Assembly (NCBI RefSeq): GCF_003334315.1
Contig: NZ_QOWR01000088.1
Strand: one strand, 5' to 3'
Length of the DNA: 10,711 nucleotides
From: Escherichia coli
GTDB lineage: Bacteria; Pseudomonadota; Gammaproteobacteria; Enterobacterales; Enterobacteriaceae
Made by a program: the position numbers and the translations under genes. Of this stretch, positions 1 to 10,711 are shown in pieces (positions within the stretch are counted from its first letter, which is position 1; each line of letters opens with the position of its first letter). The notes beneath the pieces were generated by a model that was given only the letters and a program-made list of their open reading frames with translations, did not search any database and was not told where the DNA came from.

Positions 1-438
1 AGGCCGCAGTCGGTAACCTCGCGCATACAGCCGGGCAGTGACGTCATCGTCTGCGCGGAAATGGACGAACAGTGGGGATACGTCGGGGCTAAATCGCGCC
101 AGCGCTGGCTGTTTTACGCGTATGACAGGCTCCGGAAGACGGTTGTTGCGCACGTATTCGGTGAACGCACTATGGCGACGCTGGGGCGTCTTATGAGCCT
201 GCTGTCACCCTTTGACGTGGTGATATGGATGACGGATGGCTGGCCGCTGTATGAATCCCGCCTGAAGGGAAAGCTGCACGTAATCAGCAAGCGATATACG
301 CAGCGAATTGAGCGGCATAACCTGAATCTGAGGCAGCACCTGGCACGGCTGGGACGGAAGTCGCTGTCGTTCTCAAAATCGGTGGAGCTGCATGACAAAG
401 TCATCGGGCATTATCTGAACATAAAACACTATCAATAA
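1..438 (+). CDS. insB: IS1 transposase InsB reading frame, C-terminal part (5' end outside window; normally expressed as InsAB' fusion by -1 frameshift)
   Basis: Frame 1 from position 1 reads [42 protein letters not shown]...[15 protein letters not shown], stop TAA at 436-438. This matches the remembered IS1 InsB C-terminus. The ORF-track entry 61..438 is an internal Met of this frame. Confidence 0.9.
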
Positions 439-453
439 GTTGGAGTCATTACC
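1..453 (+). mobile_element. IS1 insertion sequence, 3' portion (element starts upstream of the window); right terminal inverted repeat at 431-453
   Basis: Sequence 431-453 (atcaataagttggagtcattacc) is the reverse complement of the canonical IS1 terminal repeat GGTAATGACTCCAACTTATTGAT. The preceding 430 bp encode the InsB frame in the arrangement typical of IS1. Given a 768-bp IS1, the element would start ~315 bp before the window; the A6C frameshift motif would lie just upstream of position 1. Confidence 0.95.
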
Positions 454-642
454 GCAATGCCAATAAAAACAATATTTAAAACATTCAATAAAATATCACA
501 CACAGATAATTAAACCTTAAATAACAAATGGTTGCGTTAATTTCAGTTGATTTACGATACACATTTCTCATGAATAATGCGTCATTTCAAATGATCAGCA
601 ATATTTACATTAAATAAGACTAAACTTATTGAACATTCGCAA

Positions 643-690
643 CAGCCCAAATGTAGGTTTTGGGCTGCAATAGTTCTTTTCTTTTTTATT
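643..690 (+). terminator. Candidate intrinsic terminator-like hairpin: 9-bp stem (643-651 cagcccaaa / 659-667 tttgggctg), 7-nt loop, then T-rich tract 674-690
   Basis: Perfect inverted repeat seen directly, followed by ttcttttcttttttatt on the + strand after a 6-nt spacer. The spacer and weak stem make this non-canonical. On the + strand it would stop transcripts leaving the IS1 end. Confidence 0.3.
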
Positions 691-768
691 ATCTGTTGTC
701 TGGTAATCATCAATAGATACTAAGGGCTTAACCGTATAGATATAACGTATCAAGAGGTAGGAGAAACA

Positions 769-797
769 GCGCCATATGCAGACATGGCGCGGTTTTA
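769..797. terminator. Candidate terminator hairpin just downstream of betT stop (stem 769-775 gcgccat / 784-790 atggcgc); possibly bidirectional
   Basis: GC-rich 7-bp inverted repeat. On the + strand it is followed by GGTTTTATG. On the - strand (the betT transcript) it is followed by UGUUUCUCC, 18 nt after the betT stop codon. U-tracts are short on both strands. Confidence 0.3.
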
Positions 798-808
798 TGC
801 AATAACAA

Positions 809-7745: not shown

Positions 7746-7851
7746 AAGAGCAGCATAACCATGACGGAACGGGGTTAAGTCAGGTTGTCCTAAACGCTAT
7801 TTTCAACCTCGTATGCCTTCTTCAGGTTTATGTCCAGACTTCATATCTCTC

Positions 7852-8547
7852 TCAACAATCCTCAATAATCAGATACACCGCTTTCACCGGGCCATGAACT
7901 CCGACGACTTTGATAAGCTCAATATCCGCCGTTGAACTGGGGCCGCTAATGATGTTAATGCAGGAAGGCATTCGTTCACCGGCCTGCGCTTTCTGATGCA
8001 ATTTTTCTGCGAGTTGCGCTACACGCGGCAGGATAGTGCTTTTACGCAGGATAAAAAGAGAATATTCCGGGAGCAGGCTCAATGAACGCCCGCGCTCGGC
8101 GGCGGAAAAAAGAACCACGCCTCCCGATTCGGTTAAACCATATTCAGCATACACAACACCCACTTTAGCCTGCTCTGCCTGCGAGATATTCTCGGCACCT
8201 TTCGCCGGATCCCAAACAACGGCATTGCATTCCTGCTGCAAACGTTCGCTAATCCCCAATTCCTCCAGCCTCGTGTCACCGCTAATCACGACCGACTGAT
8301 CTCCCAGCTCTTTACACAGACGTATTGCAGCTTCTGCCGCCTTCGCCTCGCTGGTCAGCTCACAGCGCGTCAACATAACATCGCTGGCAAACTGAATAAA
8401 CGCGTCACAGCGCTGCTGTTGGTTAAGTTGGGTAAGCCGCTCGTTAGCATAGTTGTTAAGCGGCGCATCTTCTGCTTGCGGTTCAAGTCGCAGCGGGCGA
8501 CCCAGTGCCTGAGCAACGTTATTCAAAAATTCGCCTCGATTATCCAT
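7852..8547 (-). CDS. ykgG: LutC-like protein YkgG (LUD/DUF162 domain), third gene of ykgEFG lactate-utilization-type operon
   Basis: 231-aa protein MDNRGEFLNNVAQALGRPLRLEPQ... matches remembered E. coli YkgG. Start ATG at 8547-8545 is preceded by AGGAGA and overlaps the ykgF stop by 8 nt (translational coupling). The 282-aa ORF in the track (to 8700) is an in-frame upstream extension running inside ykgF. Confidence 0.9.
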   Translation of the reverse strand: MDNRGEFLNNVAQALGRPLRLEPQAEDAPLNNYANERLTQLNQQQRCDAFIQFASDVMLTRCELTSEAKAAEAAIRLCKELGDQSVVISGDTRLEELGISERLQQECNAVVWDPAKGAENISQAEQAKVGVVYAEYGLTESGGVVLFSAAERGRSLSLLPEYSLFILRKSTILPRVAQLAEKLHQKAQAGERMPSCINIISGPSSTADIELIKVVGVHGPVKAVYLIIEDC

Positions 8548-9967
8548 TCTTTTTCTCCTGCGCCTGATGTTTCTTAAACCAACTACGGAAACTCTCTCCG
8601 TCAGCTTCAGGAAGATCGCGTGCTTCCATCCAGTCGCTAATCGCGCCAAATTTGAGTGGTGTTTTGCCGCCATTGATAAACCAGCTTGCCGCATGAGCAC
8701 CGGCCATCATCCCGACTTTCCACAATCCTGGATGACTATTGGCATAAGCGAACATTTTTATCGCCCGTTGCTCTGCTTTTGCGGTGATCCCTTTTTCAGC
8801 CATCACCCGACGATGACGCAAAATCAGTTTTGACAGCGGAATACGCACCGGACACACGTTGTCACAAGCTGTGCATAAAGAGCAGGCGTAGGGTAAATCT
8901 TTAAAATCTTTATAGCCGCCAAGTAGCGGAGAAATCACCGCACCAATTGGCCCTGGATAAATAGAGCCATATCCATGACCGCCAATATGGCGATATGCCG
9001 GACAAGTATTCATACAAGCCCCGCAGCGAATACAGCGCAGCACATCCCGAAATTCAGAGGCCAGCACCTCAGAACGCCCGTTATCGACAATAACCAGATG
9101 AAACTCTTCAGGACCATCAACGTGCCCAGCTTCGCGCGGTCCTGTCAGCCAGGTGTTGTATCCCGTCAAACGTGCACCAACGGCACTGCGCGCCAGCATG
9201 GTGATCAATACATCTACCTCGGCAAACGTGGGGGCAATACGCTCCATTCCCATCACTGCAATATGCGTTTTAGGCAGCGTGGTACACATTCGCGCATTAC
9301 CTTCATTGGTCACCAGGCATACCGAACCGGTCTCTGCCACCGCGAAATTACAGCCGGTAATACCTATTTCAGCACTGAGGAAATCTTCGCGGATTTTTTG
9401 CCGGATGAATAAGGTCATCGCTTCAGGCGTTTCCGGCCCCTCATAGCCCAGACGTTCGTGTAGCACTCGACGGATCTGATGGCGATCTTTATGAATTGCC
9501 GGGACCACAACATGAGATGGCGGATCTTGATCCAGCTGGAGAATATATTCACCCAGATCGGTTTCAATCACCTGAATGCCAGCATCCTGCAACACATGAT
9601 TGACACCAATCTCTTCGGTCACCATCGATTTAGATTTCACCACCTTCCGGGCATTTTTGCGTTGGGCAACCTGTAAAATGTAGCGGGTAGCGTCTTCTTT
9701 GGTTCTTGCAAAATAGACGTGACCGCCGTTTTGCGTCACTTTTTCTGAGAGCTGGTACAGATAAGCGTCGAGATTACTCAGAACATGATCACGTATCTGG
9801 GCGGCCCGATCGCGCCACTCCTCCCAGTGCCCCAATTCATCGACCATTTTTTGCCGATTTGCCCCAATACGCTGCTGCGCGTTTGCCACCGCTTTGCGCA
9901 TGATCGGATCTTCAATTTGCTGACGGATGCGTGTCTTAAAATCTGTATTACTGGTTTTGATCGACAT
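8540..9967 (-). CDS. ykgF: LutB-like iron-sulfur protein YkgF (two 4Fe-4S ferredoxin-type motifs plus LUD domain)
   Basis: 475-aa protein with two CxxCxxCxxxCP motifs (CIRCGACMNTCP and CSLCTACDNVCP), matching remembered E. coli YkgF and its length. Start ATG 9967-9965 is preceded by GAGGA, which overlaps the ykgE stop codon. Confidence 0.93.
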   Translation of the reverse strand: MSIKTSNTDFKTRIRQQIEDPIMRKAVANAQQRIGANRQKMVDELGHWEEWRDRAAQIRDHVLSNLDAYLYQLSEKVTQNGGHVYFARTKEDATRYILQVAQRKNARKVVKSKSMVTEEIGVNHVLQDAGIQVIETDLGEYILQLDQDPPSHVVVPAIHKDRHQIRRVLHERLGYEGPETPEAMTLFIRQKIREDFLSAEIGITGCNFAVAETGSVCLVTNEGNARMCTTLPKTHIAVMGMERIAPTFAEVDVLITMLARSAVGARLTGYNTWLTGPREAGHVDGPEEFHLVIVDNGRSEVLASEFRDVLRCIRCGACMNTCPAYRHIGGHGYGSIYPGPIGAVISPLLGGYKDFKDLPYACSLCTACDNVCPVRIPLSKLILRHRRVMAEKGITAKAEQRAIKMFAYANSHPGLWKVGMMAGAHAASWFINGGKTPLKFGAISDWMEARDLPEADGESFRSWFKKHQAQEKKNG

Positions 9968-9977
9968 CTTTATATCC

Positions 9978-10507
9978 TCAGCGGCTCATCAACACTTCAG
10001 CAATATGCATCACTTTGACTTTCTGCCCTTCCCGTTGTAATCGCCCACTGATGTTTAGCAGGCAACTCACGTCAGCACCAATTAAATACTCAGGGCGGAC
10101 TTCCATCAGGTGCGCAACCTTTTCTTTCACCATCTCGCCGGATATTTCGGCCATTTTGACCGAGAACGTGCCGCCAAATCCGCAGCAGGTATCCTGTTCA
10201 GCAAAGGTCAACAGCTCCAGTCCACGCACATTTTTCAGCAGCGTAAGTGGCTCGTCCTTCACTCCCAGCTTACGGGCCAGGCTACAAGATGGGTGATACA
10301 CCGCTCTCCCTTGCAAACTGGCACCTACATCGACTACCCCTAATTTATTAACAATAAAAGAGGTGAGATCCTGCATACGCGCGGCAACCTTTGCGGCACG
10401 TGATGCCCATTCAGGTTCATCCGCCAGATACGTCGGGTAACTTTTTACGGCATAGGTGCAAGAGCCAGCCGGTGAAATAATGGGATCGTCGTTATCCTCC
10501 AGTGCGG
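9978..10507 (-). pseudogene. ykgE: ykgE (LutA-like CCG-domain protein) truncated at its 5' end by IS1 insertion; C-terminal ~175 codons remain
   Basis: Minus-strand frame reads continuously from the IS1 junction as ...ALEDNDDPIISPAGSCTYAVKSYPTYLADEPEWASRAAKVAARMQDLTSF...CCGFGGTFSVKMAEISGEMV...AEVLMSR, matching the C-terminal part of remembered E. coli YkgE (~239 aa). The frame enters IS1 at 10508 with no in-frame start codon before a stop at 10596-10598. The first in-frame Met is the internal one at 10376. Confidence 0.85.
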
Positions 10508-10711
10508 GGTGATGCTGCCAACTTACTGATTTAGTGTATGATGGTGTTTTTGAGGTGCTCCAGTGGCTTCTGTTTCTATCAGCTGTCCCTCCTGTTCAGC
10601 TACTGACGGGGTGGTGCGTAACGGCAAAAGCACCGCCGGACATCAGCGCTATCTCTGCTCTCACTGCCGTAAAACATGGCAACTGCAGTTCACTTACACC
10701 GCTTCTCAACC
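10508..10711 (+). mobile_element. IS1 insertion sequence, 5' portion (left terminal inverted repeat at 10508-10530; element continues past window end)
   Basis: 10508 onward reads GGTGATGCTGCCAACTTACTGATTTAGTGTATGATGGTGTTTTTGAGGTGCTCCAGTGGCTTCTG..., the canonical IS1 left end. Same orientation as the IS1 copy at 1..453. Confidence 0.95.
10564..10711 (+). CDS. insA: IS1 InsA (transposition inhibitor / N-terminal part of InsAB' transposase), 3' partial at window edge
   Basis: From GTG at 10564 the frame reads (M)[48 protein letters not shown], the zinc-finger-containing N-terminus of remembered IS1 InsA. Truncated by the window end. Confidence 0.85.

Follow-up and report, generated by a model that had tools for sequence, protein, structure and literature searches.

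The bet-ykg locus between two IS1 copies

The DNA analysed here (the window) is a stretch of 10,711 bp from Escherichia coli (contig NZ_QOWR01000088.1), which begins inside one copy of the insertion sequence (IS) IS1 and finishes inside another. An earlier reading of the window, made from the sequence alone, placed the end of the left IS1 at 453 and the start of the right IS1 at 10508, both on the plus strand and 10,054 bp apart. These coordinates hold on re-reading, and so does the difference between the two inner 9-mers, gcaatgcca (454–462) and ccagtgcgg (10499–10507). The same sequence-only reading likened the arrangement to a composite transposon that could move as a unit. The extended sequence and the comparison with other genomes do not bear this out, and the arrangement is very probably the product of two independent IS1 events at a native locus, not of composite transposition.

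The segment between the two copies (454..10507) lies between its native chromosomal neighbours pdeL and fdeC, and carries betT, betI, betB and betA, followed by ykgH and the ykgEFG genes (Table 1). The bet genes (809..6728) are 99.9% identical to K-12 DNA. The geometry of a bet-ykgH-ykgEFG segment bracketed by IS1 is thus as first described, but ykgE is not entire: it is a RefSeq pseudogene from which the first 190 nt are gone, and the upstream region of the operon has been deleted with them.

The whole window aligns end to end with several complete E. coli chromosomes. The chromosome of strain AHM9C68I (NZ_CP104618.1) was used to extend the locus on both sides (L001, in which the coordinate equals the window position + 6000), and it differs from the window by a single mismatch at window position 129 (IS1 position 444), with G in the window and T there. 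The G at window 129 is the base of the IS1B-type allele in strain 2017.04.03CC, so that no record of the collection is an exact match for the strain behind the window. Strain AST81 served as the IS-free comparison genome for the same chromosomal region (L002). Junctions were read from the extended loci, the IS1 copies were compared by DNA alignment, and 130-bp junction probes (100 bp of flank plus 30 bp of IS1) were surveyed against 5,426 complete E. coli genomes. The order of events, older or younger, is based on set inclusion of the junctions and not on a genome tree. Literature searches pairing IS1 with ykgE and IS1 with pdeL returned nothing on this locus.

Table 1. Features of the window, with positions counted from its first base
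Feature	Position	Strand	Basis or remark
Left IS1, 3' part (IS1 positions 316–768; insB' region)	1..453	+	Sequence; extension in NZ_CP104618.1
Inner copy of the left-IS1 9-bp target duplication GCAATGCCA	454..462	.	Sequence; gcaatgcca of the sequence-only reading
yahV 5' part, gene split by left IS1	454..503	-	Remainder across IS1, outside the window
betT	809–2842	-	Open reading frame (ORF), RefSeq; intact
betI	2971–3558	+	ORF, RefSeq; intact
betB	3572–5044	+	ORF, RefSeq; intact
betA	5058–6728	+	ORF, RefSeq; intact
ykgH	6941–7609	+	ORF, RefSeq; intact
ykgG	7852–8547	-	ORF, RefSeq; intact
ykgF	8540–9967	-	ORF, RefSeq; intact
ykgE' pseudogene, 3' 530 of 720 nt left	9978..10507	-	RefSeq 'incomplete; missing N-terminus'
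Deletion junction, ykgE interior fused directly to the right-IS1 left end	10507..10508	.	Comparison with AST81
Right IS1, 5' part (IS1 positions 1–204)	10508..10711	+	Sequence; starts GGTGATGCTGCCAACTTACTGAT

A target duplication on the left and a deletion on the right

The two IS1 pieces in the window (IS1 positions 316–768 and 1–204) do not overlap, and their alleles could be compared only after extension. In L001, both copies are complete at 768 bp (left, 5686–6453; right, 16508–17275), with terminal inverted repeats GGTGATGCTGCCAACTTACTGAT and GGTAATGACTCCAACTTATTGAT matching at 18 of 23 positions, the A6C motif AAAAAAC at IS1 position 307, where a -1 frameshift joins insA to insB', and an intact insA translation. 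RefSeq labels them as IS1A family transposase with programmed frameshift. The full left and right copies differ at 7 of 768 positions (8, 262, 298, 301, 304, 393 and 396), or at 8 when the G of the window at 444 is used, and they are different IS1 alleles. Their two longest runs without a mismatch measure 324 and 253 bp.

On the left side, an IS1 has entered the AT-rich pdeL-betT spacer, within yahV, by textbook simple insertion: it carries its own perfect duplication of GCAATGCCA, and the empty site holds this 9-mer once. The right terminal repeat of the copy occupies window 431–453, and its end at 453 reads ...AAGTTGGAGTCATTACC, directly followed by the inner copy of GCAATGCCA. The outer copy lies just beyond the window at L001 5677–5685. 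In AST81, GCAATGCCA is present once, at L002 14600–14608, within yahV, a 24-codon small-protein gene annotated at L002 14575–14649 on the minus strand. This gene is no longer annotated in IS1-bearing genomes such as L001. The insertion precedes the pdeL start by 528 bp and lies 355 bp past the betT stop codon, and the GC content is 24% in the adjoining 50 bp, 34% across the pdeL-betT spacer and 52% in the window. In its length of 768 bp, its insA-insB' organization, its A6C site, its 9-bp duplication and its AT-rich target, the left copy shares the known properties of IS1A and IS1B, and nothing of note differs save the A that replaces C at position 8, in its left terminal repeat.

The right IS1 has a different setting. 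Its left terminal repeat spans 10508–10530, insA starts at 10563, and the full copy has its right end 17 bp beyond the stop codon of fdeC. The flanks, ccagtgcgg (10499–10507) on the left and ctttcatac on the right, form no target duplication, because a 5,635-bp deletion adjoins the element. Compared with AST81, exactly L002 24654–30288 is absent, from the ykgE interior to 17 bp beyond fdeC. The intact ykgE occupies L002 24124–24843, the breakpoint falls after L002 24653, and the lost interval comprises the missing 5' end of ykgE, rclR, rclA, rclB, rclC, an aldo/keto-reductase remnant and a gene for a helix-turn-helix (HTH) regulator. The junction has the features of an adjacent deletion: the IS is kept at the junction, direct repeats are lacking, and the lost DNA is contiguous with one end of the element. 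Comparison with an IS-free relative, which the sequence-only reading had proposed, therefore gives a clean one-copy target on the left and, on the right, a deletion that this reading had missed.

The same reading had also proposed a search for a target duplication around the whole unit. With the sequence extended on both sides, the outer flanks are GCAATGCCA on the left and CTTTCATAC on the right, which do not match.

Junction distribution and rearrangements in related genomes

Among the 5,426 complete genomes, the ykgE-IS1 junction is present in 28 records (about 25 strains), obtained from poultry, ducks, pigs, humans, frogs and sediment, with China, Viet Nam, USA and Cuba as the countries for the records where this was read. 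The junction between IS1 and the betT side is present in 7 records, all inside this set of 28: AHM9C68I, AHM9C61I, JX21CE33 (twice), 30EVA2, 23CRST042 and 2017.13.01CC. The pdeL-side junction is found in 6 of these 7. The remaining 21 records of the ykgE-IS1 set carry the right IS1 without the left one. Because of this nesting, the left IS1 would be a later, independent addition in a sub-lineage. Two separate insertions, the outcome which the sequence-only reading had set against its own proposal, are thus supported by the duplication of the left copy and by the 21 records with the right copy alone. The IS1-fdeC junction is matched at 100% in 28 records, namely 25 of the ykgE-IS1 set together with RCAD0514, PSS-12 and TOE3. 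It also occurs in STEC388, and at a 1-bp offset in four ETEC strains.

One and the same IS1-fdeC junction is combined with four different fusions on the left side. The left end lies within rclA in PSS-12, within ykgE in the window clade, just after betA in the betA-ykgH spacer in TOE3, and beside yahL in RCAD0514 (IS1 at L003 3263–4030), the last corresponding to a large yahL-to-fdeC deletion. In TOE3 and RCAD0514, the deletions anchored on the right IS1 thus remove part or all of the bet-ykg segment. On the opposite side of the element, three members of the ykgE-IS1 clade have lost the fdeC junction: the right side is fused to the fdeC interior in L6-21 (L013), to DNA upstream of ykgR in ST12468 (L014), and to ecpR in PI12 (L015), which also carries an inverted IS1 in ykgG. 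In 2018-11-3CC (L011, NZ_AP021895.1), the ykgE-IS1 junction is followed by tauA, and the IS1-fdeC junction lies 62.7 kb off on the other strand, the result of a 62.7-kb inversion between IS1 copies in which the right-hand IS1 took part. The IS1 allele is mixed in this case, as seen at positions 262, 278 and 444.

In the case of STEC388 (L012 7099), ...cgtaaCTTTCATAC is joined to the IS1 left end and the rcl region is intact. Meanwhile, the IS1 right end joined to the fdeC flank is located at NZ_CP041425.1 3828250–3828379, with 130 of 130 bases aligned and one mismatch. The two halves of the CTTTCATAC duplication are therefore 25.7 kb apart on opposite strands, as expected of a simple insertion which duplicated CTTTCATAC and was afterwards split by an IS1-IS1 inversion. 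A simple insertion at precisely this site is thereby on record, and the strain may represent a progenitor state. The IS1 next to the rcl region in this strain is joined on its other side to proBA. Judged from these junctions, the right IS1 is a rearrangement hub, with a set of four nested deletions on one side, changes on the other and two inversions.

The left IS1 behaves likewise. In 2017.13.01CC (L008 6263, NZ_AP027813.1), it keeps the betT-side junction and its left end is fused to the yahD interior, and 3,690 bp beside it, comprising pdeL, yahB, yahC and part of yahD, have been lost. Furthermore, the sister strain 2017.04.03CC (L009 2686–3453, NZ_AP025205.2) carries, 118 bp upstream of pdeL, an IS1B-annotated copy that points the same way and has its own duplication CCACATCAC, so that a second, independently formed direct pair surrounds bet-ykg in this strain.

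Insertions close to both sites are also found outside these lineages. ETEC1730 (L006 3263–4030) and ETEC1703, 1717 and 1718 have an IS1 1 bp from the right site, and in the unrelated strain HCP30S3_I2 (L007 6102–6869) another IS1 variant lies at a distance of 1 bp from the left site, together with a local deletion of about 120 bp. In many other genomes an IS1 lies no more than a few hundred bp away, whether in the pdeL-betT spacer, close to ykgE or in the interval between the HTH gene and fdeC. Both sites behave as IS1 hot spots, the pdeL-betT spacer being often hit. Two of these strains were considered, one as a progenitor and one as a deletion product, and rejected. ETEC1730 is not the progenitor of the right IS1, its insertion being 1 bp off and having its own duplication, ACTTTCATA. 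HCP30S3_I2 is not a product of deletion between the two IS1 copies, given its different IS1 variant, its 1-bp offset and its local deletion.

Origin of the direct IS1 pair and its consequences

The favoured account consists of two events. In the older one, an IS1 would have entered the DNA 17 bp after the stop codon of fdeC, duplicating CTTTCATAC; subsequently, 5,635 bp and one copy of the duplication would have been lost beside its left end, taking away the HTH gene, rclCBA, rclR and the initial 190 nt of ykgE, and leaving the IS1 fused to the ykgE interior. In the younger event, confined to the sub-lineage, a different IS1 allele would have transposed into yahV and duplicated GCAATGCCA. The shared orientation and the 10-kb spacing would then be incidental. 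This accords with the abundance of the element: IS1 is present in 4,971 of the 5,426 genomes, each having a median of 11 places, a search with just the 30-bp right end finds 27 places in AHM9C68I, and a sister strain has at least 40 pieces. With 27–40 copies on a 4.63-Mb chromosome, chance alone would give 0.8–1.7 direct pairs within 10 kb, and a direct IS1 pair 10 kb apart is not above this expectation.

A Tn9-like composite transposon, which has moved or can move as IS1-bet-ykg-IS1, is the reading that the geometry first suggests. Tn9 itself has two IS1 copies in direct orientation, and the present locus shares with it two complete direct copies, intact outer ends and a passenger of about 10 kb. 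The likeness goes no further, since the unequal outer flanks leave no duplication around the unit, the left copy has a duplication of its own, and the passenger is native, in the order pdeL, bet-ykg, (rcl), fdeC as in AST81, with no second location known. Moreover, the right copy stands alone in 21 records, and no IS1-bounded copy of the segment was found on plasmids, where the matches are K-12 F' plasmids and pMTY18781-4. This last molecule (L010, NZ_AP023209.1; 68.5 kb, typed as non-mobilizable) is at least in part syntenic chromosome, from yahJ to fdeC at 98% identity, without IS1 borders, and may represent chromosomal DNA excised as a circle or else an error of assembly. Composite transposition accordingly deserves almost no credence. 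An artefact in the window itself, with IS1 repeats mis-joined or collapsed by the assembler, is about equally improbable. Repeats commonly cause mis-assembly and each genome has at least 27–40 IS1 copies, but the same four junctions recur base for base in six independently assembled complete records, from chicken (AHM9C68I from China, AHM9C61I, and JX21CE33 in two assemblies) and human (30EVA2 and 23CRST042), and a duplication like that of the left copy is exactly what real transposition leaves.

The mechanism of the 5.6-kb deletion is more evenly balanced. Deletions radiating from both ends of one retained IS1 are the classical adjacent-deletion pattern. The right IS1 shares with the adjacent deletions of IS1 and Tn9 a retained IS, the lack of a duplication, and one fixed end with variable endpoints (rclA, ykgE, the betA-ykgH spacer and yahL); it differs in that natural isolates are compared here, not a selected laboratory series, and in that recombination with a second IS1 is also possible. 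Intramolecular transposition of IS1 is slightly favoured over recombination between two copies, because most IS1 alleles at the fixed junction show no mixing: the window clade, 2017.04.03CC and TOE3 (with one private single-nucleotide difference) have a single allele as their right IS1. The rival route, RecA-mediated recombination of the fdeC-proximal IS1 with a second direct IS1 in ykgE, is a serious contender with somewhat less than an even chance. Direct IS1 pairs arise readily at this locus, as in the window and, with CCACATCAC, in 2017.04.03CC; the inversions in 2018-11-3CC and STEC388 point to exchange between IS1 copies; and the IS1 of RCAD0514 looks chimeric, with A at position 8 as in the left-type allele and right-type bases elsewhere, and could have arisen by recombination of one IS1 copy with another. 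An IS that stays behind and lacks direct repeats typically marks deletions made through intramolecular transposition of IS1/Tn9, and also those made by homologous recombination of two copies (PMC9330008, section 5.2.1), so that either mechanism would leave the observed junction. Against the RecA route stand the unmixed allele, the many endpoints radiating from both ends of one IS1, and the fact that no genome turned up with a simple IS1 insertion at the breakpoint in ykgE, two intact-ykgE matches with a nearby IS1 being left unexamined.

Several observations weigh against the favoured account of the older event. An undisturbed progenitor, with IS1 at this site and both copies of the duplication adjacent, was not found in the collection. 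The IS1 of STEC388 is of a differing allele (WP_103215986.1, with the right-end variant aagttAgagtc), and its insertion could be a separate event at a frequently hit site. PSS-12 likewise carries a clearly different IS1 allele. Given this allele and the ETEC insertions 1 bp off, the site may have been hit repeatedly, and the nested series of deletions need not all descend from one insertion. In addition, IS1 position 8 in RCAD0514 hints that, at least there, IS1 × IS1 recombination and not a transposase-made deletion was at work.

Selection is a further possibility for the left copy, which would have been retained if insertions upstream of pdeL alter its expression and are repeatedly favoured in this clade. 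Within one clade, two independent insertions in the same orientation precede the pdeL start by 528 and 118 bp, and unrelated strains also have an IS1 nearby (HCP30S3_I2 at the 1-bp offset, others about 325 bp away). Expression of pdeL protects E. coli from phage N4 (PMC8669472). Nevertheless, 2017.13.01CC has deleted pdeL altogether, and the 34% GC of the spacer would suffice to make a hot spot. IS1 prefers AT-rich targets. Retention by selection is thus unlikely, and a broader proposal, in which the insertions upstream of pdeL are selected regulatory mutations (acting through pdeL, cyclic di-GMP, motility or phage N4) and the resulting IS1 pair then serves as a cassette for excision or amplification of the bet osmoprotection operon, is rated a little lower still.

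The sequence-only reading further supposed that the segment could be deleted by recombination between the two IS1 copies. In principle the pair could recombine, the shared identity of 324 and 253 bp being ample for RecA, and exchange between IS1 copies has occurred at the right copy itself, in 2018-11-3CC. The IS1 copies here do drive deletions and an inversion (TOE3, RCAD0514 and 2018-11-3CC), but no product of exchange between the two was found: the predicted arrangement, pdeL flank, IS1 and fdeC flank, is present in none of the 5,426 complete genomes, because the betT-side junction is retained wherever the pdeL-side junction is present. The remark that the pair is a recombination substrate is therefore reasonable but unproven, and the pair would be a substrate for RecA-mediated deletion of bet-ykg whose product does not appear among the complete genomes.

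The losses at the locus are the split yahV, the truncated ykgE and the absent rclR-rclABC. The remaining ykgE'FG has probably lost its promoter and fallen silent, because the upstream region is deleted and the adjoining IS1 end holds no outward promoter-like site. The sole such site there by consensus scan is the inward insA promoter at 10515–10542, and the scan found no outward promoter toward ykgE'FG, which is weak evidence either way. The bet genes should be unaffected by the left IS1, since they are intact and the element lies beyond the betT stop codon at the distance given above. The strain would be expected to be more sensitive to reactive chlorine species.

Taken as a whole, the locus reflects known behaviour of IS1 in a lineage with many copies of it. 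It represents ordinary insertion-sequence variation, with no mobile unit involved, and it matters little beyond bookkeeping. What resembles a composite transposon in a short window can come from two unrelated IS events, and the decisive check for such pictures is the target duplications after extension of the sequence. For the organism, the outcome is a clade without the rclR-rclABC defence against reactive chlorine and without a working ykgEFG operon, and a sub-lineage also without yahV. The locus is also a natural example of IS1 as a local rearrangement hub, which may provide teaching material or markers for lineage typing.

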